Part shown: one piece after another, positions 4,588 through 59,237 of the stretch
How positions within the stretch are numbered: the stretch's first letter is position 1
Layout: each line of letters starts with the position of its first letter
NCBI GenBank assembly: GCA_003971905.1
Contig: RSEE01000005.1
Span: forward strand, 1,178,001-1,242,000
Direction of reading: 5' to 3'
DNA from: Moniliella sp. 'wahieum'
Taxonomy: Eukaryota
Length of the DNA: 64,000 bases
Made by a program: the position numbers and the translations under genes
The notes under the pieces: generated by a model
Seen by the model: only the letters and a program-made list of their open reading frames with translations
The model's database searches: none
What the model was told of the DNA's origin: nothing

Positions 4588-4659
4588 GCCTCTTTGGCTC
4601 AGTGGTACAGCATCGCACTTGTAATGCGAAGATCAGTCGTTCGATTCGGCTAAGAGGCA
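4588..4659 (+). tRNA. tRNA-Thr (anticodon TGT), intronless
   Basis: GCCTCTT/AAGAGGC acceptor stem, A-box TGGCTCAGTGG, anticodon arm TCGCA-CTTGTAA-TGCGA, T-arm GTTCGATTC, and an oligo-T Pol III terminator. Confidence 0.95.
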
Positions 4660-4676
4660 TTTTTTTTCTTCTCTGC

Positions 4677-4730
4677 TACAGCGTCGCACTTGTAATGCGA
4701 AGATCAGTCGTTCGATTCGGCTAAGAGGCA
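4677..4730 (+). pseudogene. 5'-truncated tandem copy of tRNA-Thr(TGT)
   Basis: Repeats tRNA positions 4606-4659 with one substitution and is followed by the same T-run. Lacks the 5' acceptor strand and A-box. Confidence 0.85.
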
Positions 4731-5163
4731 TTTTTTTCTTCCCTGCCACATGTCAGGCTGATCTGGACGGCCTCCCCGGGGCTTCACACATATACTTCCG
4801 CGCTCTCAAGTTATCGCTCACCCTCCCCCCCCCCTCTATCCCTCGCTAAACCGCCAGCCAAGCTGGGGCCTAACTGCAGATGAGAAGGCAGGGCTCAGGC
4901 TGCGCAGCGGGCGGGCAATGGTGGGGGTATGCTGGATGCAGGATGCATCCGCGTCGACCTCGTCGTTGTCAGGAGCGTACATCATCCATCCATCCCGCCA
5001 AGCGCCCGATCAATCGTCCTGCCTTGTTGGCAAGAAGCACCCCAGAACGACAAAAGAAGGGGTTCCAAAGTCCCCTACTCACTATGTCCTCTTGCCCATC
5101 ATGGGCACTACTACCTCGCCCAGTACTTCCGCGCGCGCACACTGCTTCCGTGCGCTCTCGATC

Positions 5164-40382: not shown

Positions 40383-43195
40383 TCATTTCGATCGTTGCAC
40401 GGACACGTTCATGCGGTTCATGCCGGAAGAAAAGTATGTGCTATCAAACCAGCATCTGGACTGCCCAGTGCTGGGGGAGTCTCGTCGCCCCCTGATGTCT
40501 TTGCCTCTGCGTCCGACCCCCTCCTGTGCTATGGTTGCGGTCCCCAGTTTGGATCGCACGACGTTAGGGGCATTATTGGAGACCAACTTGCTCGCTACGA
40601 GACACCGAGACCAAGATCGAGACTGAGACCGAGACCGAGACGGAGAACAGAAGACCCAGCATATGGGCCAGTGGACTTTAGACGGAAAAAGAAGAAAACA
40701 ATCAGAAAAGCCAGCACACTGTGCACCAATCACCTCTTTGCATACCGCGCCGACGAGGAGGAACGGGAGCGGGCGCTGTGGGAGGGCGGGCAAGCTAGAG
40801 GACGACTGGGCGCGGCGGGTGAGAGAGGCCAACTGCGCTGCGCGCTGCTCAAATCGGTCCGGGTCGCCCTGGACCGAAGCTAAGATGACGTGCAACTGGC
40901 TCCGGCGCAGGTCCGGCGCCTGATCCAAATACTGCACAAACAACATCTCAATCCGCTCCCGCGCCCGCGCCACGCTCATCTCCGGACCAAGCCAGTAGGG
41001 CAGATGCACTTGGCTCAGACCATAGTCCTCCTTCAGACCACGAAGTTGACGACGGAACGCGGCTACGCCCGAGCTAGCGGCGGCGGGGGCGGCGGCCTTG
41101 CGCCGCTTCTCCCCCGCTTCGGAAGCGTGGCCGACAGTGCTGGCCGACGGCTTGGCGGGCGCCGAGTCGATCCGCTTGCTCGGTTTCGCTGCCACGCGCG
41201 GACGTGGGACAAGCACCTCGGGCGGAGGCGTGAGATCGGACGAGTCGGAATCATACTCGTACCGAGGCGGCGGCGAGGCAGCACGGCGTTTGGCCTTCTT
41301 GTTGCTCTTGTCGCCCTCCGCGTCGGCAGAAGCGCCCCAGAAGCGCTTCAACGTGGCCTGCTGCGACGGCGCCGGGTAGGTCTCGGTGGGAACGGGGCCA
41401 GGTCGTTTTCTCAGGGATGAGAGCCGCGCTTTGGCTGAGGGTGCGGCCGCAGCAGGGAGAGGATCGGCTGGCACGGGCGACCCTTCAAGAGAAACGGAAT
41501 TGTCTGTTGGTCCCGGAAGGTGTACCTCCTCCTGGGTCTCATCTTGGGCTTCATCTCGGGTCTCCTCTGGGGCCTCCTCTTGGGCTTCCTCTGGGGCCTC
41601 CTCTTGGGTTTCCTCTTGGACCTCCTCTTGGACCTCCTCTTGGGCTTCCTCTTGGATCTCCTCTTGAACCTCCTCTTGGGCTTCCTCTTGGGCTTCCTCT
41701 TGGGCTTCCTCTTGGGCTTCCTCTTGGGCTTCCTCTTGGGCTTCCTCTTGGGCTTCCTCTTGCACTTTCAATTGCGCTTCCACCGACGCCTCCGCTTTGC
41801 TGCCCACCTCGGAAACAGGCATCAGATCTGTGCCATTGTCTACTTCCAACACACGACGGAGTCCCGTGCCGAAACAAAGGAAGCTGTCGTGTTGAGATGC
41901 AAAGGATCCTGTGGGTCTCCTTCGACTTGCTGAATCGCCTCCTCCCGGCTTGTTTGGTCTTGAGTGGCTGCCACCTCCAGAGACGCTTCCCTCTCTTCAC
42001 TTATTTCAAGGCGGCGCAGCTTCTTGGCGAGAGCTACGTATGTCTCTGGTTCACGCTCGTACTCGTCGCGCCACACTTGCGCCGAAGGACCGTCCGGTTG
42101 CTGAGGCAAGGTCAGCCAACGTCTGGCTCAGAAAGAGGAAAGAGAAGAGGGGGGTACATACTGCGCGAGCCAACTCGTCAAAGAATTCAGTCGGCAGGTT
42201 AATTTGTGACTCGGCCTCCTCTTCCTGCACTTGACCATTCTGCAACCAGGAAGCAAAGAAGCAGACCATGAAGTCCCGCTGCTTGTCGTCCAAGGGAGAA
42301 GCTTCCTTTGCGGGGCTCGAGCGGGTAGGCAGGGCAGCATTTTCGGTGATCTTGCTGATGGCATTCGCCTCCTGCGTGGGCTCAGACAGCTCGTTCTCGT
42401 TCTCGGCCACCCGAACTTCCGGTTCACAGTGGGAAGGGTCACTCGCGTTGGCCTCGTGGGTACTAGCTTGGGGCTCCTGGTCTTGGTGGGAGAAGGCAAG
42501 CTGGGGGAACGTTCCGATGGCTTTTGAACGGGGTTCTGAGTCGAAGTTGGGGCGGTACCCATCCCTTGGCCGGTCACGCTCACATCCTTCCCTGCCGTCG
42601 AACTTGGGGTTTCAGACGAAGGCGGTGGCGCGGTCGTGACAGGCTGCTGCACTGGCGCCTTCTCCGTCTTCACCGGCAGCGTAGCCCCCTTCAGATCGCT
42701 GCCTTTCTTGGGATCTTGTTGGATGGGCTCCGAATCCGACTCAAACTCTTGCTGTTCATAGTCACTTGGCCGTTCCGTCTCGTGGGCCGGCAAGGGGAGC
42801 GCCGGTGAGGCTTGCCGGACGGGGCGGGGCGGAGCGGCAGTAGGGGTAGGCCGGGAATTGGGGACGGGCTGGTACGTCGCAGACGGGGCAGTATCGTGTT
42901 CCTTGGCGAGCTGGTGGTAGGAGCGCCAGGACCCGAGCGAGCCAAAGCGGCGCAACTGGTCGGAGATGTAGGTCTGGTAAGACCACGCAGTGTGGCGTGG
43001 GCAGATCTCGGCGAGGTGGCGAGCGACTTTGAGCCCTTTGTGGGAATCCTTGGTGTGCTCGAGGACAGTGATGATGGTATCAATGTCATCGAGCGTGTAG
43101 GGCAGGCGGGAGGACGCGTGGGACTGGCGCGGGGGGGGGGGCGGGGCGGGGCGCGCGCGGGGCGGAATGGCGTCCCAGGGCAGGTGGCGTGGCAT
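40383..43195 (-). CDS. Myb-like domain protein, Rap1-like candidate, with acidic QEEA repeat
   Basis: RLPYTLDDIDTI...ARHLAEICPRHTAWSYQTY and, across intron 42101-42161, FFDELAR-QPDGPSAQVWRDEYE both resemble Rap1-type Myb domains. Helical C-terminal domain. 3' end uncertain (possibly ~40730). Confidence 0.55.
41530..41762 (-). repeat. Coding 12-bp tandem repeat (QEEA/QEEV/PEEA)
   Basis: The + strand unit TTGGGCTTCCTC and variants repeats in tandem, encoding QEEAQEEAQEEA on the minus strand. Confidence 0.9.
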
Positions 43196-43440
43196 ATGGG
43201 TGGGTGGGCGTGGCGCAGCGCTGGCGCGGGGGCCAGGCAGATGGTGATGGTGGTGGTGGAGGGGCGACGCGATGGCCTGGATTCGGGGCTGCGCGAGGGC
43301 AGCTTTCCCACCCGACGCGTCGGAGGATGCAACTTGCAACTGCAACTTGCAACTTCCAATTGCAAGCAATGTTTCATGGCCGGGTGTGGGCCACTCATTA
43401 CGGGTTTCGCGCCGAGTCGGCTGGCTTGGCCGCCACCGCC

Positions 43441-44724
43441 ATGGTCGTCCGTGGGCGCGGCGCCTATACGCCCCACCTGCGCCCCCCCGCCGGCCGCATC
43501 AGCGAGTACCGCGCCCTCGCCGGCCTCCCCCGCTCCTCCGATGCACTTGACCTGCTCGTCCGCGTAGGCCAAGCCGTCGCGCCCCTGCTCGCCCGCCACT
43601 CCTGGCGTGTCCCCCTGCTGGCCGAGATGCGGCCGCAGGACCGCAACCTTCTCGGGCTCAACGTCAACAAGGGGCAGAAGATCTGTCTCCGGCTCCGTCC
43701 AGGCGCACATTCCGACCCTCTTCCTGAGGGTCTCGACACCTTTCTTGACTTTGACAGCCTCGTTCAAACCATGCTCCACGAACTCACCCACATCGTCCGC
43801 GGCCCCCACGACGATGTCTTTTGGTCCACTCTTCAGCGTCTGTCCGATGAGCACCACTCGCTTTCCCGTGCCGGTCCGGCTGCCTTGTCCTTCACTGAGC
43901 CTGGCCATCGCCTGGGCGCTTCCGGTGGTGCCCGCCTCGCTGGCACCACTCCCCGGCGCGAGGTATTGGCTGTTCGCCCTCCTGCTCCTCGGGGCGGTCA
44001 TGACCGCCTTGGTGGTGCTGGACTCCCGCGAGGCGCTCCCCCCTCTGCCGTGGCAGCAGCAGCTGCTGCTGCTGCACAGCGGCGTATTCAACAGGCCGGC
44101 TCTTGTCCTGATTCGGCTGCCGCGGCCCATGAGCTGGAACTAGCCGCAGAGCAAGACGAAAAGGAAAATGGTGTGGAGACGATTGTTGTCTCCGACGCGG
44201 ATTCCGATTCCGATCCTGAGGGGAACGAAGTGGTTGCACAGGTGCGCCAACAACCTCCTCATCCCCCTCATCCCGAGAAGCCTTCAGCATCACAAGGGGA
44301 TGACAGTATTGTTTGTGTGGCGGGGCCCTCACGGGGAACTAAACGGGATTATCCTTTCGCCGGCTCAGCCATCGTGCTGGACAGTGGGAGTGAGGAGGAA
44401 GATGAAAATGAAAATGAAAATGACACTGTTCTTATCACGCGCCACATCCCGCCCCCACCCCTAGCCAATGGCTGGTCATGCGAAGCTTGTACGCTCCGCA
44501 ATCGCTCGAAAGCGTTGCGTTGTGCCGTATGTGATGCGCCCCGGCCTCGATGGAATGTTCTGGGCCAGAGCGCCAGAGCCAAGTTGCTTCACGCCCCTGC
44601 ACCGACCAAGTCCACGATTGGTGATCCCAAAGCGTGGCGGTGTTCCTGCGGATGGATTATGGCCCATGAGGAAGCACAACGGTGGATGTGCACGTCATGC
44701 GGGAAAATTCGAACGACGAGTTAA
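43441..44724 (+). CDS. WSS1: DNA-protein crosslink metalloprotease Wss1 (WLM domain, C-terminal RanBP2-type zinc fingers)
   Basis: LLGLNVNKGQKICLRLR, TMLHELTHIVRGPHDDVFW (HExxH), GHRLG, SIM-like IVVSD/IVLDS, and WSCEACTLRN..CAVCD. Uninterrupted ORF. Confidence 0.93.
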   Translation: MVVRGRGAYTPHLRPPAGRISEYRALAGLPRSSDALDLLVRVGQAVAPLLARHSWRVPLLAEMRPQDRNLLGLNVNKGQKICLRLRPGAHSDPLPEGLDTFLDFDSLVQTMLHELTHIVRGPHDDVFWSTLQRLSDEHHSLSRAGPAALSFTEPGHRLGASGGARLAGTTPRREVLAVRPPAPRGGHDRLGGAGLPRGAPPSAVAAAAAAAAQRRIQQAGSCPDSAAAAHELELAAEQDEKENGVETIVVSDADSDSDPEGNEVVAQVRQQPPHPPHPEKPSASQGDDSIVCVAGPSRGTKRDYPFAGSAIVLDSGSEEEDENENENDTVLITRHIPPPPLANGWSCEACTLRNRSKALRCAVCDAPRPRWNVLGQSARAKLLHAPAPTKSTIGDPKAWRCSCGWIMAHEEAQRWMCTSCGKIRTTS

Positions 44725-54119: not shown

Positions 54120-54582
54120 GGGACAAACGTCAAACACCAGCCAACCGTCCGTCTGACAGGTTGACAGGACGCGATAGACCTTCGAGGGGGCGGCGCTATA
54201 AGTATGCTCATTCAGTGCTCCAGTTGGGACGAGCTGGGCCACCGATCACGTAGTCAGACTTGAAGCTTGAAGCTTGATGCATGAAGCTCGTGGCGGCGGG
54301 GGCGGAGGCGCTGCATCTGAGAAGCTGAGAGACCAGATTCTGACGATTCTTCCGATGAATAAGCGCTTGATCGTTCCCCGCCCTCAGAACGCCGCGGACA
54401 ACACCAATGGAGTGCTGGGCCATGTGGCCCGCGCTGAGCTCAGCCTGGAGCTTGGGCCTTGGGGCGTGGGGAGCGACAAACCGATGCGCACGGACCGGGG
54501 CGTTGCGGGAGAGCCGCTCATGACGTCATGCTGGGTATCTATAACGGCCAGGGCAGCCAGGGCACGCTGGGTATCACTACGA

Positions 54583-57500
54583 TGAGTACTGAGTACATTG
54601 AGTACGAGGAGACCACCGGGCTACGGCCCGGTCTGCTGCGTCGCCACCGTAGCCACCGTCCCCCGGTCCCCGTCGGCACCTTAGCCACCGGTCCCCTCGC
54701 CACCTTAGCCACCGTCCACCGTCGCTACCGTCCACGCTGGAACCCTTCCACGCTGGAGAGGGCAAAAATAATATCACGATTTCTGGCTGCGGGTGGCTGG
54801 GAACGTGGCATCGGTCGGCACGTGCCTATGACGTAAAAGTGTGCAGATTTCCCAGCCGATCTATGATATAGAGCGGCACACCGCCCCCCCCGCCGCCGCG
54901 GCCGCGCCCACCACCACCGCCACCAGACGCGCGCAACCCCTCGACCGACCACGGGGCCGACCCTCCTTCCCCGTTTGACCGCCCTGGCCGAGCGCCCAGG
55001 CACACGCAAGATAACGCCACACCTGAAGCGCCCTTTCCTCCAGATGCTCGGCCGTTTGGCGGACGCGTACTTGCAGGAGCCCTCGTCAGCACACCTGATG
55101 GATATTCTAGCGGTGCCTAAGGAAGTACTCCGCTCACAACAAGGACAACAACCTCATCGGGACTACCCCAACAGCGCCTGGCAACTCCCTCCGCCCCCCG
55201 ACTTCTCAACGCGCGAGGCACGACCCAGTCACCAAGGCCGACCGCCTCATTCGGGAGGGCTGCCTCAGCCGCGCAGCAAGTACCCTCGTCGGCCAATCCA
55301 CCATTGCCCCTCTCACCACCGAGACCCAGGCAAGCCTGGAAAAGCTCCATCCCGTTGGAGAGGCGAACCTCAGCCTCGGCCCGGGCACAGCCTTTGGCAA
55401 CACCACACCCACTCGTCCCACCCCAACAGGCCGCGTGGTACCGCGGCACCACCCTCACCGACACGACGGACAGTGACCGTATCGTGGTGGACTTGGACGA
55501 AATCGACTTTGTTGCCTTGATTGCCACGTTCAGAATCGACGTTGGGGCAGGTCTATCCGGGTGGACCCAGCCCCTCCTACGAACGGCCCTTGAATGCAAG
55601 CGCTTCGTCGCCTTTCTCACCGCCCTCACCAAGAGTATTTACCACGGCACCGCCCCAGGACGCGAGCTCCTGTTGGCCCTCCCGCCTCACCCCCCTGGAG
55701 AAGGCATCGGGAGGCATCCGCCCCATCGCCTGTGGGGAGCTGATCTACCGCCTGTGCGCCAAGGCCATCGCTCGAGCGATCGCCCCCAACAGCTGGCTTC
55801 TCCCCACCCAGTTGGGAGTAGCATCGCAAAACGGGGTGGAGCCTATCGTACGGATGGTCGAGCGCATGACAGCGCCAGGCGGGGAGAACGATGCGGAACT
55901 GGGCGACTTCAGCCACGTCGCCATGCTCGACTTTACCAACGCCTTCAACACTGTGCGCCGTCGCACACTCGCCAAGGCGCTCCATGCCTACGCCCCCCAT
56001 CTCCTCACGTTGGGCCGATGGATCTATGGTTCCCCCACCCAGCTCTGGGTCGCGTCGGGCGGAAATGAGACCAACGTCCTGTCGGCAGAGGGCGTACGGC
56101 AGGGCGACCCCCTCGCCCCCTTTTTCTTCTCCATCGCAGTGCGGCCCACGCTGGAGAAACTGGAACAGGACCTGCCGCCGGGGCACCTGGTGATGGCATA
56201 CCTGGACGACATTACGATCTTCGGTCCAGGGCCAGGCATTACCGGCCTAGCCGCGGAGATTTTGGAAGACGACGCGTCAGGCCTCAAGCTCAACCTGCGC
56301 AAGTGTGTCGAGCGGGACCGGGACCAGATTCGGGTGGATGGTCTGCAGGTTCTGGGCACTTGTGTGGGAGGGGTAGACTGTCGTCGATCGTGGCTCCGGG
56401 CCCAACTGGCCAGTCTGAGGGAGAACATGCCTAAGTTTGATGGCATCACCCGCCAGGGACGCCTCTTACTATGGCGGCTCAGCACTCAGACCAAGCTGCG
56501 CCACCTGCTCCGCACCATGCAGATGGAAGGAGAGCTAGACGACGTGCTGGCCGAGATTGATGCCTTCATCTGTACGGAGTTCAGACGGATCCGGGGCGAC
56601 GAGGATCCCCAAGGTGCCAAGGACGACCACTTCGACATGCTCATGAGCCTGCCTCTTCGGCTGGGAGGATGTGGCAGCCCGCTTTACTCGTATATTGCGC
56701 CCCACGCCCGTGCCGCGGCCAACGAGGTCAACGACTATCTTATTACCACTTATGTTGACCGTTCGGGACCGCAAACGGCAAGGGCCAACGCATTTACGAA
56801 GCAACGCCAGCGCTGCCGCGAGATGTGGGAGCAAAGTCGACAGGAGCTGCTCCAGAAGCTGGACGCTGCCGATGGTCGTCATGTGGTTGAGCACAGCAAC
56901 CCGCTGAGCCACAACTGGCTCTCCGCTATTCCATCCGTCCCGTACCTCAAGCTCTCTGACCAGCAGGTCCAGGTTGGTCTCCAGCTCCGCACGCTGTGCC
57001 GCACCACGCGCAGCATGTGCAAGTGCGGCGTCATGTCCTCGCTGGAACACATCATGTCCTGCACCCGCACCCAGGCCAAGTTTGGTGCGTTGCATGAGGC
57101 AGTGCGGGAGCCCATTCTCCAGCTCCTCCGCTCCATCCCCGACACCCACGTCCACAACGAACCTATGGTGGAGGAAGAGGATGGGACGAGGCGCGGACGG
57201 AAGGCACAGCGCACCGATTACCGCGTGATGGGGCCCGGAGCACTGGGAGGAACCGGAATGGAGGTAGACCACACGCTGCGCGACACGGGATCGCAGGAGG
57301 CGCAGAGCGCGTACCGGCGGGTGGTGCATGAGAGCACTGCGTCGCCTTTGGAACGCCGGGAGAAGGAACTGCTTCGGCTGCTTGAACAAGCAGAATGCGA
57401 CAAGAACGCCAAGTACCAGGGACGCACTCAAGAACCGTTTTTCCCCCTGGTTTTGACGACGCGAGGATACTACGGCACCAAGACGGCGGGCAAGTTGTTT

Positions 57501-57659
57501 GCGCATTGGAAGGAGTTGGCTACTAAGTCTCAGTGGAAATGGTTCCTCGCTCGTATGTCAACCACGTTCCTCCGTGTCCACACGCGCTTCCTAGGGTACG
57601 GGACCGGATGGCGTGAGCCGGAGGGTCCTGATATCCTGGCGATCCCCCTGGTCCCTTAA
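54583..57659 (+). CDS. Reverse transcriptase / RLE polyprotein
   Basis: GLSGWT, GGIRPIACGE, QLGV, LDFTNAFNTV, GVRQGDPLAPFFF, AYLDD, GLKLNLRKC, VLG, LPLRLGG, CKCG..LEHIMSC and RLE-like RTD..EVD..DKNAKY..FFPLVLTTRG. 55521-57659 is open; upstream pieces need frameshifts. Confidence 0.9.
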
Positions 57660-57770
57660 TCTTGGTGGCGCTTCCAAGTAACCCCCGCAAGATGAACGGT
57701 TCGGTTTAGACGTAGCGTTCCCCCTGTCCCAGCCTTAAGCTCTGTCAATGGAATGCACACAATATAGAGA
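54583..57770 (+). mobile_element. Non-LTR retrotransposon with RT and restriction-like endonuclease (CRE clade; Cnl1/MoTeR-like)
   Basis: One long ORF, frameshifted in its 5' part, with RT, CCHC and RLE domains, then a ~110-bp 3' UTR whose end at ~57770 is defined by the downstream copies. 5' boundary uncertain (ATG 54583 or ~54780). Confidence 0.9.
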
Positions 57771-57940
57771 TTCTCTGGCTGCGGGTGGCTGGGAACGTGG
57801 CATCGGTCGGCACGTGCCTATGACGTAAAAGTGTGCAGGATTTCCCAGCCGATCTTAGCAAGAGAACGGTTCGGTTTAGACGTAGCGTTCCCCCTGTCCC
57901 AGCCTTAAGCTCTGTCAATGGAATGCACACAATATAGAGA
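57771..57940 (+). mobile_element. Short internally deleted derivative 1 (170 bp)
   Basis: 57771-57855 matches ~54780-54862, then jumps to element position ~57687 and runs to the 3' end (AATATAGAGA). Confidence 0.7.
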
Positions 57941-58366
57941 TTCTCTGGCTGCGGGTGGCTGGGAACGTGGCATCGGTCGGCACGTGCCTATGACGTAAAA
58001 GTGTGCAGGATTTCCCAGCCGATCTTATGACCGTTTTTCCCCCTGGTTTTGACGACGCGAGGATACTACGGCACCAAGACGGCGGGCAAGTTGTTTGCGC
58101 ATTGGAAGGAGTTGGCTACTAAGTCTCAGTGGAAATGGTTCCTCGCTCGTATGTCAACCACGTTCCTCCGTGTCCACACGCGCTTCCTAGGGTACGGGAC
58201 CGGATGGCGTGAGCCGGAGGGTCCTGATATCCTGGCGATCCCCCTGGTCCCTTAATCTTGGTGGCGCTTCCAAGTAACCCCCGCAAGATGAACGGTTCGG
58301 TTTAGACGTAGCGTTCCCCCTGTCCCAGCCTTAAGCTCTGTCAATGGAATGCACAAAATATAGAGA
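57941..58366 (+). mobile_element. Short internally deleted derivative 2 (~426 bp)
   Basis: Same 5' segment (57941-58030). 58031-58366 then duplicates 57435-57770, i.e. the ORF C-terminus and 3' UTR. Confidence 0.7.
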
Positions 58367-59083
58367 TATATTCCGCCTGCGCGTTGGATCATCCAAATCT
58401 TCTTATTAGGCTCGACAGGGCCACCTCGGCCACCACACGCCACACCACACCTCATCTGTCTGCCAACCAACACCTTTGGCAGGTGGTTTGACGATCTGAC
58501 GAGCCACACTTGCCAGATCTCACCGTGTGTGGCCGAGGGCGCTGAGGATGCAATGGGGGGCTCAGCGTTCAGAAGGGATGGGCGCTGAGCGCTGAGCTCA
58601 GTAGCCCAGCTGTTGAGCGGCTGCCATTATGCGGCCCGGCGAATACTGGTTGGTAATGCACCGCACCGCAGCCTCTTCAACTGCATGTGCAACGTTCAAC
58701 GTTCCCATGTTCACAACGCTGAGCTGAGGCGCTGAGAGAGGCTCGCATCCACAACAAACACAGTGCCTCAGTCTTAATAAACCATCACCAGATAATCCCT
58801 CTGTGCCTTAGCACCTCAGCTGCACGTGCACCCCAGGTCTCATCGCCTCATCGCCTAGAGGGCGAGGGAATCCAACTGTACTATTGCCGTAATAGCCTGC
58901 GAAGCGTTTGCGCAGCGCCTCTTTTGCTGTGTATATTCTGTTAGAGGGTACTGCTAGGGTTCTCCTGCGCGGCCCTCAATGGATCGGTGACGCTCGCCTA
59001 GCCGAGCGGAAGCGTTCCGCTCGCAGGCCGCGCACGCCCTGCTCGCTCCATCTCCCTTCTCTCTCTCCTTTCTCCTTCCCTTC

Positions 59084-59237
59084 AGACGTTGCTTGAAGAC
59101 TTGTGGCTCACCACTTTGCCTTCACGCCTTGTCTGAAGGTACGCCTCTGCTTCCTTTCTTGACCTGTTGCTCCTCACAATGAGACGTTGCTTGAAGACTT
59201 GTGGCTCACCACTTTGCCTTCACGCCTTGTCTGAAGG
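59084..59237 (+). repeat. 56-bp exact direct repeat with 42-bp spacer
   Basis: AGACGTTGCTTGAAGACTTGTGGCTCACCACTTTGCCTTCACGCCTTGTCTGAAGG at 59084-59139 and 59182-59237. Confidence 0.9.

Follow-up and report, generated by a model that had tools for sequence, protein, structure and literature searches.

An interstitial head-to-tail stack of an RLE-type retrotransposon and two short derivatives broken at a common point

Introduction

The fungal CRE-type retrotransposons Cnl1, MoTeR and FoTeR have been studied as telomere-bound elements. A 64-kb stretch of Moniliella sp. 'wahieum' (contig RSEE01000005.1; hereafter the window, whose positions are used throughout) raises the question of how an element of this kind came to stand among ordinary genes, head to tail with two short derivatives of itself. 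In an original prediction, made from the letters of the window, an RT/CCHC/RLE element was described as being followed directly by units of 170 and ~426 bp. Here we report the anatomy of the stack, its relatives and the explanations that may account for it.

Organization of the locus

The head-to-tail array was confirmed. It spans 3.76 kb (54604-58367) and begins with a 177-nt foreign unit, which is followed by a full-length but disabled copy of the element and by two derivatives lacking an ORF:

54604..54780, plus strand: unit 0, 177 nt, unrelated to the element, with internal repeats of ~24 nt (TRF)
54782..57771, plus strand: long copy, RT/CCHC/RLE element
54782..54866, plus strand: H_a, 81-nt 5'UTR module (TCTGGCTG...GATCT) plus ATG (54863-54865) and A (54866)
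54867..54873, plus strand: 7-nt insert TATAGAG, copy of the element's 3'-terminal motif
54874..57659, plus strand: ORF of the long copy, with three frameshifts in its N-terminal third
55698..56345, plus strand: RT domain (PF00078, E 3.4e-17), residues 60-275 of the protein from 55521-57656
57018..57470, plus strand: CCHC and RLE region, near-invariant columns of alignment A1
57660..57771, plus strand: 3'UTR, 112 nt, with the terminus ...GGAATGCACACAATATAGAGAT
57774..57941, plus strand: short unit 1, 168 nt (170 with its linker TC, 57772-57773)
57944..58367, plus strand: short unit 2, 424 nt (426 with its linker TC, 57942-57943)
58368..58386, plus strand: right flank, ATATTCCGCCTGCGCGTTG

When 54501-58400 was compared with the window by blastn, 58030-58367 corresponded to 57434-57771 (99.7% over 338 nt) and 57858-58027 to 57687-57857 (99.4% over 171 columns), while 57931-58030 and 57761-57855 matched 54770-54866 and 54770-54862, respectively (94-95%). 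A repeat search (families D1-D3) agreed with this layout and TRF gave a period of 170 with 2.0 copies and 99% matches, which bears out both predicted units. No further copies of the element were found by blastn in the 64-kb window. The start of the array had been placed at 54583; it lies instead at ~54604, as the depth of run X1 is 0 upstream and begins in the bin 54594-54740. Unit 0 is linked to H_a by a single T (54781), and its terminus AATAATATCACGAT is like that of the element, CACAATATAGAGAT(T), at 10/15 positions. The terminus of the 3'UTR recurs at 58367, where it adjoins unique DNA.

The stack is located inside a contig of at least 64 kb with ordinary genes on both sides, and a POP1 gene begins ~1.1 kb downstream. 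A WLM-domain protein, considered as a guide to the host lineage, gave no placement, its relatives being unnamed proteins with 50-52% identity and ascomycete proteins with 30-35%. No TTAGGG-type repeat run was found in the window (0 matches), in agreement with the interstitial position that had been predicted. As for the marks of telomere targeting, namely repeats at the 3' ends and arrays at chromosome ends, the locus had neither, telomere-like repeats being absent at all four 3' ends of the stack. No tRNA was found within the array. It must be noted that the contigs of the four sequencing runs cover neither the flanks nor 57828-57974 and are therefore uninformative on the assembly; no RNA run was listed as containing the sequence. 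Four features described below go beyond the original prediction: H as a 5'UTR, the 7-nt insert, unit 0 and an H-like right flank.

The long copy and its 5' module

All three element units have a common start, H, whose copies are designated H_a, H_b and H_c. H is the 5'UTR of the element and carries the ATG (54863) on its 3' edge, so that the earlier caveat of an ORF extending upstream of the common start proved wrong. Behind the ATG and A, CGGCAC continues in frame 0 with the ORF once 54867-54873 are discounted. The ORF start thus obtained, ATGACGGC, equals the start of the copy at the related locus L078 (ATGACGGCGGAC, MTAD) and is close to a loose end of an X1 contig, in which H position 58 is followed by ATG... 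(ATGCACGGCGGAC). The spacing between the stop and the next ATG is ~190-210 nt in the related loci L004, L007 and L008 and 112 + 2 + 81-83 nt here.

A 9-bp inverted repeat is present within H (GGCTGGGAA / TTCCCAGCC; repeat search, I1-I3). H showed no significant fold (z -1.9 and -0.4 vs shuffles), and the 3'UTR and short unit 1 folded no better than shuffles (z +0.5, +0.7 and +0.3). Rfam searches over 54400-58500 gave no ribozyme match at E up to 10 and no known RNA in H or the 3'UTR, with three chance-level matches elsewhere. In this regard, an HDV-like double pseudoknot was not found at the 5' end of H: threading by hand leaves eight letters between the P2 and P1 strands, too few for P3 and L3, so that on this hand reading H is not an R2-type ribozyme fold.

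The element had been called near-complete. This holds for its length and for the presence of RT, CCHC and RLE, but the copy is disabled by the 7-nt insertion, after which the ATG and the ORF are in different frames, and by three frameshifts (0>1 near 55194-55235, 1>2 near 55400-55440 and 2>0 at ~55683). All this damage falls in the first 815 nt; from 55689 on, the ORF runs without interruption until its stop at 57657-57659. The 8-mer ATATAGAG occurs four times in the 64-kb window, at the three 3' ends and at the insert behind the ATG, with an expectation of 0.33, and 0/100 shuffles reached four.

Protein relationships and other copies

The YxDD residues (Y171, D173, D174) are invariant in alignment A1, which comprises 15 sequences, and R2 RT chains in the PDB match the window protein at 2e-8. 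No Pfam model matched the CCHC/RLE part, whose assignment follows the A1 columns (C444, C446, H454 and C458 for CCHC; H469, E491, P492, R508, D510 and D527 for RLE). The best named relatives were Cryptococcus neoformans and Tilletia proteins, with 31-38% identity over 66-97% of the query; the Cryptococcus proteins P0008, P0018, P0026 and P0028 were 31-34% identical over 86-97% of it. We infer that the C. neoformans relatives are of the Cnl1 type. In a tree that included no CRE, SLACS, MoTeR, R2 or NeSL references, the window protein was placed with the Cryptococcus and Tilletia proteins inside a 38-row group (SH-aLRT 92), on a long branch (1.12) and at an unresolved fork. Taken at the level of sequence, the data support the predicted RLE-type non-LTR retrotransposon with fungal relatives.

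Homology to these relatives begins at 54930-54963, equivalent to residue 121 of P0003, 241 of P0006, 169 of P0004 and 208 of P0012. The first homologous block begins only ~25-33 codons behind the ATG, and no N-terminal zinc finger was found in that interval, whereas the relatives have 120-255 residues before that block, including CxxC...HxxxxH. A crude motif search detected the finger in 19/47 related ORFs of at least 600 aa, and the feature therefore varies within the group. With an equally crude pattern, telomere-like repeats were found at most 450 nt from the stop in 22/47 related loci, 12 of the 25 misses having less than 150 nt of sequence to inspect. Our best reading is that this lineage lost the N-terminal zinc-finger part and the telomere-repeat junctions of its relatives.

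Judged by sequence likeness, the element family is present elsewhere: P0083, from a 1174-nt contig, is 79% identical over 277 residues, and run X1 contains element pieces 88-99% alike. In an X1 contig, 54760 is followed by 17 letters and then by 54604 again, and unit 0 is thus repeated head to tail there without H between. In addition, X1 contains two junctions with 5' truncation, at 57417 and 56961, that are preceded by sequence other than H; at the 56961 loose end the first 12 letters match H_a at 11 positions. A metagenome scan with a 22-nt stretch of H gave 0 matches, and the junctions of the short units fall outside the X1 contigs. Head-to-tail copies of close relatives occur in independent metagenome contigs (L001, L007, L008 and L023), and copies of different subtypes stand side by side both in L007 and, as unit 0, here. 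The locus L078 was considered as a further unit composed of a 5'UTR block and a 3' piece and was rejected, since L012 has the same join, which is probably the normal 3'UTR of that family.

The short units and the break behind the ATG

Short unit 1 consists of H_b (57774-57857; 84 nt, ending in GATCTTA) and an 84-nt 3' piece (57858-57941) identical to 57687-57771 minus one T. Short unit 2 consists of H_c plus ATGA (57944-58030; 87 nt) and a 337-nt 3' piece (58031-58367) identical to 57435-57771 except for one C>A (57760 C / 58356 A). This exact anatomy bears out the common start (84-87 nt), the common 3' end and the jumps to 57687 and 57435 that had been described. Removal of one 255-nt stretch from short unit 2 would give short unit 1. 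There is no difference between H_b and H_c, which with their TC linkers are 100% identical over 164 nt (family D2); H_a differs from both by two 1-nt indels. The linker ahead of H is T in H_a and TC in H_b and H_c, so that the latter are not plain copies of H_a and its surroundings.

Microhomology at the junctions between H and the 3' pieces is 0-1 nt. Given that the long copy is interrupted at the same point by TATAGAG, the breaks of all three H copies fall within 4 nt, and each of them is followed by 3'-end sequence. The units had been described as internally deleted derivatives; the break in the long copy at the short-unit point argues for a putative hot spot behind the ATG and against free internal deletions, and for this hot spot the mechanism given below is a proposal. 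Splicing was discarded as a source of the deletions, as the deleted stretches neither start with GT nor end with AG. H as a long duplicated target was likewise discarded: it fits the H_b/H_c pair only, H being absent before unit 0, before H_a and behind the 7-nt insert. Both short units retain the 5' and 3' ends of the parent without its ORF, which is the arrangement of SIDEs or MoTeR2 to which they had been likened, and they can be considered candidate SIDE-type derivatives known at one locus.

Flanks and target site

The first 19 letters of the right flank match the H start, including its AT lead-in, at 13 positions. This match was found post hoc, with nine offsets tried, and has a background of 18 in 120,144 positions; it fades further out (13/22 and 13/26). 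We read the flank as a possible pseudo-target. Three of the four 3' ends adjoin an H and the fourth adjoins this genomic DNA, which gives some support to the predicted insertion at the element's own end. When H was aligned freely and locally with the right flank, the result was at chance level (p 0.55), and there was no target-site duplication, in that 54500-54790 and 58350-58420 have no common word of at least 7 nt. The flank was also considered as a decayed older copy. This candidate was rejected in view of the same local alignment (p 0.55), of an alignment of H plus the ORF start whose score of 18 was reached by 11/1000 shuffles and 10/100 real window segments, and of tblastx and blastn comparisons of the element with both flanks, which gave low-complexity matches only.

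Origin of the stack

The explanation that we prefer, with a probability of about 0.5, is that the stack was built by repeated target-primed insertions of a Cnl1-like (CRE-type, RLE) element homing to its own 5' end, together with a hot spot behind the ATG. The stack would have grown by successive insertions, each directly ahead of an H, and the first ahead of genomic DNA resembling the H start. The 5' end of the element would accordingly contain a copy of the element's target, comparable to the telomere-like repeats of its telomeric relatives. A second RT-linked hot spot would lie 0-3 nt behind the ATG and A, where 5'-truncated copies of 7, 84 and 337 nt would have been joined to a resident H, either because the far foot of the inverted repeat in H received a second nick or through a template switch onto the 3' edge of H. 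Whenever the joined piece was long enough, a mini-element of the SIDE kind, made of a 5'UTR and a 3' end, could result.

Several observations count against homing. The evidence comes from one locus; the 13/19 match is post hoc and fading, the local alignment of the flank is at chance and no duplication of 7 nt or more was found. No H stands ahead of unit 0, the unit 0 of X1 follows itself without H, and the truncated X1 junctions at 57417 and 56961 are not preceded by H. The lack of a significant fold or an Rfam match in H also counts against the preferred explanation, and the identity of H_b and H_c would suit local duplication as well. A bolder form of this explanation, which we consider doubtful, is that telomere targeting was swapped for homing to the element's own 5'UTR, with an endonuclease that cuts at both feet of the H inverted repeat, that is, ahead of H and just behind the ATG, so that one process would spawn the mini-elements. 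Whole copies would then stack head to tail ahead of residents, and truncated copies joined behind H would capture the resident 5'UTR and start codon. At an earlier time the same process could have made the zinc-finger-less ORF, whose start, M-T-A, is that of its relatives and is followed directly by the linker. In a variant, H_b would be a long (~86-bp) target-site duplication of H_c.

Other explanations have to be weighed against repeated homing. The stack could come from a single integration event without DNA homing, in which the RT, on reaching the 5' end of an RNA, went on at the 3' end of another, and in two internal jumps landed on the 3' edge of H. End-to-end template jumping by R2-type enzymes in vitro speaks for such a chain, as do the one or two linker letters (T, TC, TC) at the junctions between 3' ends and H, the 0-1 nt of microhomology at the H-to-piece junctions and the adjacency of different-subtype copies (unit 0; L007). 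Additionally, PMC3414825 describes jumps of these enzymes to small RNAs in vivo, U12 and tRNA among them. However, a linker TC is unlikely to arise twice if untemplated, the 7-nt insert with the ORF resuming behind it needs a jump out and back to one point, a chain of about six switches is demanding and it remains unexplained why the flank resembles the H start at 13/19 positions; we therefore regard a single event as rather improbable. Rearrangement at the DNA level without RT, in which tandem duplication (by unequal exchange, break-induced replication or a rolling circle) is followed by internal deletions that give unit 2, with unit 1 derived from a copy of unit 2, would agree with the 164 identical nt of H_b/H_c and their TC linkers and with unit 1 being unit 2 minus one 255-nt stretch. 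It would also have a precedent in the MoTeR arrays, reported in PMC7367193 to expand by D-loop or rolling-circle copying with identical junctions. Nevertheless, random deletion is not expected to give three breaks within 4 nt of the ATG, and the insert that copies the 3' terminus, the differences between H_a and the other two H copies and the linker T before H_a vs TC before H_b and H_c make this origin distinctly unlikely.

It could also be argued that H does not belong to the element. It would then be a captured small RNA, or a host target repeated in tandem into which 5'-truncated copies inserted three times. The start and end of H are constant and each H is joined to a variable point of the element, a pattern found in site-specific 5'-truncated insertions and in snRNA chimeras such as U6-L1, in which a small RNA is captured through template switching. 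The R2 jumps onto U12 and tRNA (PMC3414825) point the same way. Yet the ATG at the H edge is in frame with the ORF once the insert is discounted, the first codons match the starts of relatives, the X1 contig has ATG... after H position 58, H has no Rfam or tRNA match and no free H exists elsewhere in the 64 kb, all of which leaves a foreign H very unlikely. Slightly less credence still is given to an assembly artefact, by which reads of dispersed full and truncated copies were joined into a tandem that does not exist. Repeats of 84-337 nt that are nearly identical are indeed difficult to assemble, and the X1 contigs do not span 57828-57974 or the flanks, but novel sequence, which reads must contain, is present at both internal junctions and in the 7-nt insert, each copy has private differences (one missing T, one C>A, two H indels), the stack lies within a contig of at least 64 kb among ordinary genes and head-to-tail copies of relatives recur in independent metagenome contigs.

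In attention to the repeated-insertion explanation, a relative without finger and telomere repeats that still stacks would separate the habit of stacking from telomere targeting, and would suggest, on the basis of one locus, that what is recognised is the 5' end of the element itself. The common break behind the start codon suggests a simple route to short non-autonomous LINE derivatives, described as rare in PMC6740152. If the units are unique to this site, they would be a local curiosity.

Comparison with known systems

A close counterpart is Cnl1 of Cryptococcus neoformans / deneoformans, whose presumed proteins fall in the same large tree group and which like the window element has a single ORF with RT, CCHC and RLE. 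Cnl1 is heavily 5' truncated, inserts into its own copies in tandem orientation, can land in or beside genes and often lacks target-site duplications; 10.1101/2021.08.11.455996 gives insertions from 25 bp to full length and duplications that are absent or of 1-12 bp. In contrast, Cnl1 arrays are subtelomeric and bordered by telomere repeats while the window array is interstitial with junctions free of telomere-like repeats, and the Cryptococcus proteins have an N-terminal C2H2-type stretch (A1 columns 150-230) which the window ORF does not have. Mobilisation of clearly non-autonomous Cnl1 copies was reported as not seen in C. neoformans, and the origin of target choice and self-nesting is described as still open (PMC12810828).

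MoTeR of Magnaporthe/Pyricularia oryzae and FoTeR of Fusarium oxysporum, compared by description, are also CRE-clade fungal elements in head-to-tail arrays. Their 5' end bears target-like sequence, as proposed for H; in PMC7367193, intact MoTeRs are described with variant telomere repeats at their 5' ends, MoTeR2 with both the 5' and 3' ends of MoTeR1, and interstitial relics as existing, every one of which retains at least a partial telomere repeat at its 3' end. The window copies have no such repeat, unlike these relics and the FoTeRs, which are flanked by TAACCC, and the short units are pure joins of 5' and 3' sequence whereas MoTeR2 has a unique central segment.

The Drosophila R2 SIDEs and R2/R1 hybrids resemble the short units in being ORF-less and in combining the 5' module of the parent with its 3' end. 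In the hybrid SIDEs, according to PMC3414825, identity to R2 ends 5-8 nt behind the 5' ribozyme, compared with 0-4 nt behind H and the ATG here. The R2 module is an HDV-like ribozyme, whereas H gave no ribozyme match, and R2 SIDEs, whose age and activity have been demonstrated, are scattered over 28S genes, while here there are two units at one locus. Finally, SLACS, CRE1, CRE2 and CZAR, again compared by description, have a single ORF with an RLE and belong to the clade in which Cnl1 and MoTeR have also been placed (PMC12857005; PMC7175516). These trypanosomatid elements insert at one point of a tandem repeated target and make target-site duplications (PMC3636483), while the window stack is flanked by none. 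Their target is the host spliced-leader gene, whereas the sole recurring neighbour in the window is the element's own 5' end.

Structure of the stack

The region 54501-58400 was compared with the whole window, and repeats were additionally sought with a repeat search (D1-D3) and Tandem Repeats Finder, which reported a period of 170 with 2.0 copies and 99% matches. In agreement with the original prediction, all three showed the long element with a 170-bp and a 426-bp unit directly behind it, the 2-nt linker being counted in each. The self-comparison also confirmed that both short units carry the long copy's start and 3′ end and jump internally to 57687 and 57435: 58030-58367 corresponded to 57434-57771 (338 nt, 99.7%), 57858-58027 to 57687-57857 (171 columns, 99.4%), and 57761-57855 and 57931-58030 to 54770-54862 and 54770-54866, respectively (94-95%). 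Beyond the stack, no element copy was found in the 64 kb. The components, with H as the 5′ module common to all copies, are the following (forward strand):

54604-54780, unit 0, first piece of the stack
54782-57771, long copy, starting with H_a
57774-57857, H_b, ending in GATCTTA, followed by 84 nt (57687-57771 less one T): short unit 1
57944-58030, H_c plus ATGA, followed by 337 nt (57435-57771, one C>A): short unit 2
54782, 57774 and 57944, starts of H, beginning TCTGGCTG
57771, 57941 and 58367, common 3′ end, ...GGAATGCACACAATATAGAGAT (terminus, ...AATATAGAGAT)
Linkers, TC between 3′ end and following H (twice) and a single T between unit 0 and H_a

The structure is real and slightly richer than predicted. 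Unit 0, of 177 nt and without relation to the element, makes the stack longer than had been described; its end (AATAATATCACGATT) and CACAATATAGAGATT are alike at 10 of 15 positions. H_b is identical to H_c, and two 1-nt indels set H_a apart from both. The joins between H and the 3′ piece share 0-1 nt, and the deleted stretches have neither GT at their start nor AG at their end. An 11-nt palindrome, AGAGA-T-TCTCT, is present at each junction of a 3′ end with H (57766-57776 and 57936-57946), and the T missing from short unit 1 leaves AGAGAA, the complement of the TTCTCT ahead of H_b (inverted repeat I2).

Pieces similar to the element were present in contigs of the sequencing run X1, whose depth was first seen in the bin 54594-54740 and was 0 in the bins upstream. 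In one of its contigs, 54760 is linked by 17 letters (ending ...TAATATCACCA) to 54604 again; unit 0 thus lies head to tail with itself in that run. Joins of 5′-truncated element to other sequence were found at 57417 and 56961. The loose end ahead of the latter begins AAGCGTGCAGAT and agrees with H_a 54837-54848 in 11 of 12 letters before diverging; it may be a further join of an H variant to the element in another genome.

Genomic site

The stack is intergenic and interstitial: no TTAGGG-type run is present in the window, an ORF encoding a POP1 N-terminal domain (E 1.1e-24) begins at about 59.47 kb, and further ordinary domains are encoded upstream. Just upstream of the POP1-domain ORF there are two 71-nt direct repeats, 92% alike and 98 nt apart (59069-59237). 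Elsewhere in the window, a 71-nt tandem repeat (2.1 copies, 4606-4750) overlaps the tRNA-Thr(tgt) gene at 4588-4659, perhaps because the tRNA gene has been duplicated in part, and a long minus-strand ORF (40383-41996) contains 19.7 copies of the 12-nt unit TCCTCTTGGGCT (41527-41762). The ORF of a WLM-domain metalloprotease (43075-44721) has unnamed relatives 50-52% identical and named ascomycete ones at 30-35%; the host lineage is poorly sampled.

The 5′ module and the start codon

H is the 5′UTR of the element, and in the long copy the start codon is the site of a break. On the 3′ edge of H lies an ATG (54863-54865), followed by A, TATAGAG (54867-54873) and CGGCAC, while the ORF with homology to relatives is read in frame 0 from 54876 on (AHRPPRRRG...). 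If the 7 nt are left out, ATG-ACG-GCA-CAC is in frame with this ORF. Since the ATG at the edge of H is in frame, it is now unlikely that H is a foreign unit. The ORF start, ATGACGGC, is identical to the one found in the second copy of L078, a metagenome locus with related elements (ATGACGGCGGAC, MTADCPFC); L001, another such locus, starts with ATGACGGTTGAC, and an X1 contig tracks H to position 58 and continues with ATGCACGGCGGAC. The distance from the stop to the next ATG is about 190-210 nt in the head-to-tail relatives L004, L007 and L008, and 112 (3′UTR) + 2 + 81-83 (H) nt in the window. The extension of the ORF upstream of the shared start, which had been considered possible, is thus not confirmed. 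The short units combine this 5′UTR with a piece of the 3′ end.

Neither a ribozyme nor any other Rfam match was obtained for H, no tRNA was found in it, and its predicted fold was not better than those of shuffled sequences; a 9-bp inverted repeat has its feet near both ends of H (I2/I3). The palindrome GGCACGTGCC, with CACGTG, and TGACGTAA are found at 54817-54838, in a stretch also present in H_b and H_c. They resemble transcription-factor sites, which would fit an internal promoter in the 5′UTR.

Four occurrences of the 8-mer ATATAGAG were counted in the window (expected 0.33; a count of four was reached in 0 of 100 shuffles), one at each of the three 3′ ends and one at 54866-54873. The long copy therefore holds a 7-nt copy of the 3′ terminus directly behind ATG plus A, after which its ORF picks up again. 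At the same point the short units carry 337 nt of the 3′ end at a distance of 0 nt and 84 nt at 3 nt. Three breaks at most 4 nt apart in a 3-kb element are not due to chance.

Coding region and relatives

The long copy encodes a reverse transcriptase (RT) domain (PF00078, E 3.4e-17), and this part matched PDB sequences of R2 proteins at 2e-8. In a 15-sequence protein alignment (A1), the protein retains the YxDD motif, a CCHC motif (C444, C446, H454, C458) and the endonuclease columns H469, E491, P492, R508, D510 and D527. The frame is open and unbroken from 55689 to the stop at 57657-57659, and three frameshifts all fall within the first 815 nt of the ORF (54874-55688). Given that the shifted part has only 2 homopolymer runs of at least 5, vs 10 in the unbroken 1971 nt, and that other ORFs in the window reach 847 codons, the frameshifts are tentatively taken as real mutations and not as read errors. 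The shifted and intact parts may differ in age.

A word-indexed search gave 76 proteins at E ≤1e-3, the best being 36-38% identical, with named matches from Cryptococcus neoformans, Tilletia caries/indica/laevis, Berkeleyomyces, Saitozyma and one labelled Dyella. An exhaustive HMMER search retrieved 6395 representatives at E ≤1e-3 and 231 at 1e-30; in it one protein (P0083), alone on a 1174-nt metagenome contig, was 79% identical over query residues 379-655, the runner-up reaching 41%. In a quick tree of 58 rows, built without reference CRE, SLACS, MoTeR or R2 sequences, the window element had a long branch (1.12) at a fork without resolution, within a 38-row group (SH-aLRT 92) that includes Tilletia, Berkeleyomyces and Cryptococcus rows. 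The Cnl1 element of Cryptococcus is described as CRE-type, and CRE1/2, SLACS, CZAR, MoTeR1, Cnl1 and FoTeR as one clade (PMC7175516; PMC12857005).

A scan of metagenome contigs with A1 gave 601 pattern matches, 303 of them relatives, from which the best 80 loci were taken. In six (L001, L002, L004, L007, L008, L023) the 3′UTR ends at telomere-like repeats (CCCTAA, CCCCCTAA or CCCGAA) and is followed head to tail by the next copy, whole or 5′-truncated; in L004, L007 and L008 variant repeats reach to about 8-45 nt from the next ATG. By a crude pattern, such repeats were present no more than 450 nt from the stop in 22 of 47 loci whose ORF reached 600 aa, and 12 of the other 25 offered less than 150 nt to inspect. 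In L007 (1-4619) two subfamilies lie head to tail, the first ORF being 68% like L003 at DNA level and the second copy 100% L003. In one telomeric family, a 60-nt block found both in the 5′UTR and within the 3′UTR (L078 1768-1971, L002 7-74, L012 264-360) amounts to a terminal redundancy. Homology of the window element begins at 54930-54963, corresponding to residue 121-241 in four full-length relatives, and the zinc-finger part seen in A1 is therefore absent; in L025 a copy is cut at about the same point, behind telomere repeats.

Origin of the stack

The sequence establishes to which family the element belongs, that the stack is interstitial, how the short units are composed and that they and the long copy have a common break point; the mechanism is an inference. 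From this one locus, the favoured reading is that the stack arose by successive target-primed insertions, each of which would land directly ahead of an H. Homing to H is favoured because three of the four 3′ ends adjoin an H and the fourth an H-like stretch, and because the 5′ ends of telomeric relatives likewise contain target-like sequence. The right flank opens with 19 nt (ATATTCCGCCTGCGCGTTG) that agree with the H start plus lead-in (ATTCTCTGGCTGCGGGTGG) at 13 positions, a value equalled or exceeded at 18 of 120,144 positions in the rest of the window, with 9 offsets tried. Against homing, this likeness was noticed post hoc, and it ends after 19 nt (13/22, 13/26); a free flank-H alignment was not significant (p 0.55), nor was the flank against H plus the ORF start, where 10 of 100 real-sequence controls scored equally high. 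Moreover, no H lies ahead of unit 0, the X1 repeats of unit 0 have no intervening H, and the 5′-truncated X1 joins lead to other sequence. The left boundary zone and the right flank share no word of 7 nt or more, and the search for an older copy in either flank gave low-complexity matches only.

A single event with serial template jumps is a rival to successive insertions, as is duplication and deletion at the DNA level; local duplication would also fit the identity of H_b and H_c. Misassembly is a further rival. Under the favoured successive insertions, the break behind the ATG would be a second RT-linked hot spot, and the 7-nt insert with resumed ORF would resemble an abortive insertion; Cnl1 inserts down to 25 bp, often without duplications, have been described (10.1101/2021.08.11.455996). 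The 84- and 337-nt joins could derive from the same type of insertion, after which the resident body was lost or a transcript of H plus piece was re-mobilised. A template switch in which the RT moved onto H's edge could equally account for them.

Variant telomere repeats are described at the 5′ ends of intact MoTeRs, and every relic reported has retained a repeat, at least in part, at the 3′ end (PMC7367193). Unlike in these relics and the six telomeric metagenome loci, none of the four 3′ ends of the window element carries a telomere-like repeat. For the break point, a close precedent is found in the R2/R1 hybrid short internally deleted elements (SIDEs), of which four cases are described with R2 identity ending 5-8 nt behind the 5′ ribozyme (PMC3414825). 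The element is Cnl1/MoTeR-like, with SIDE-like derivatives.
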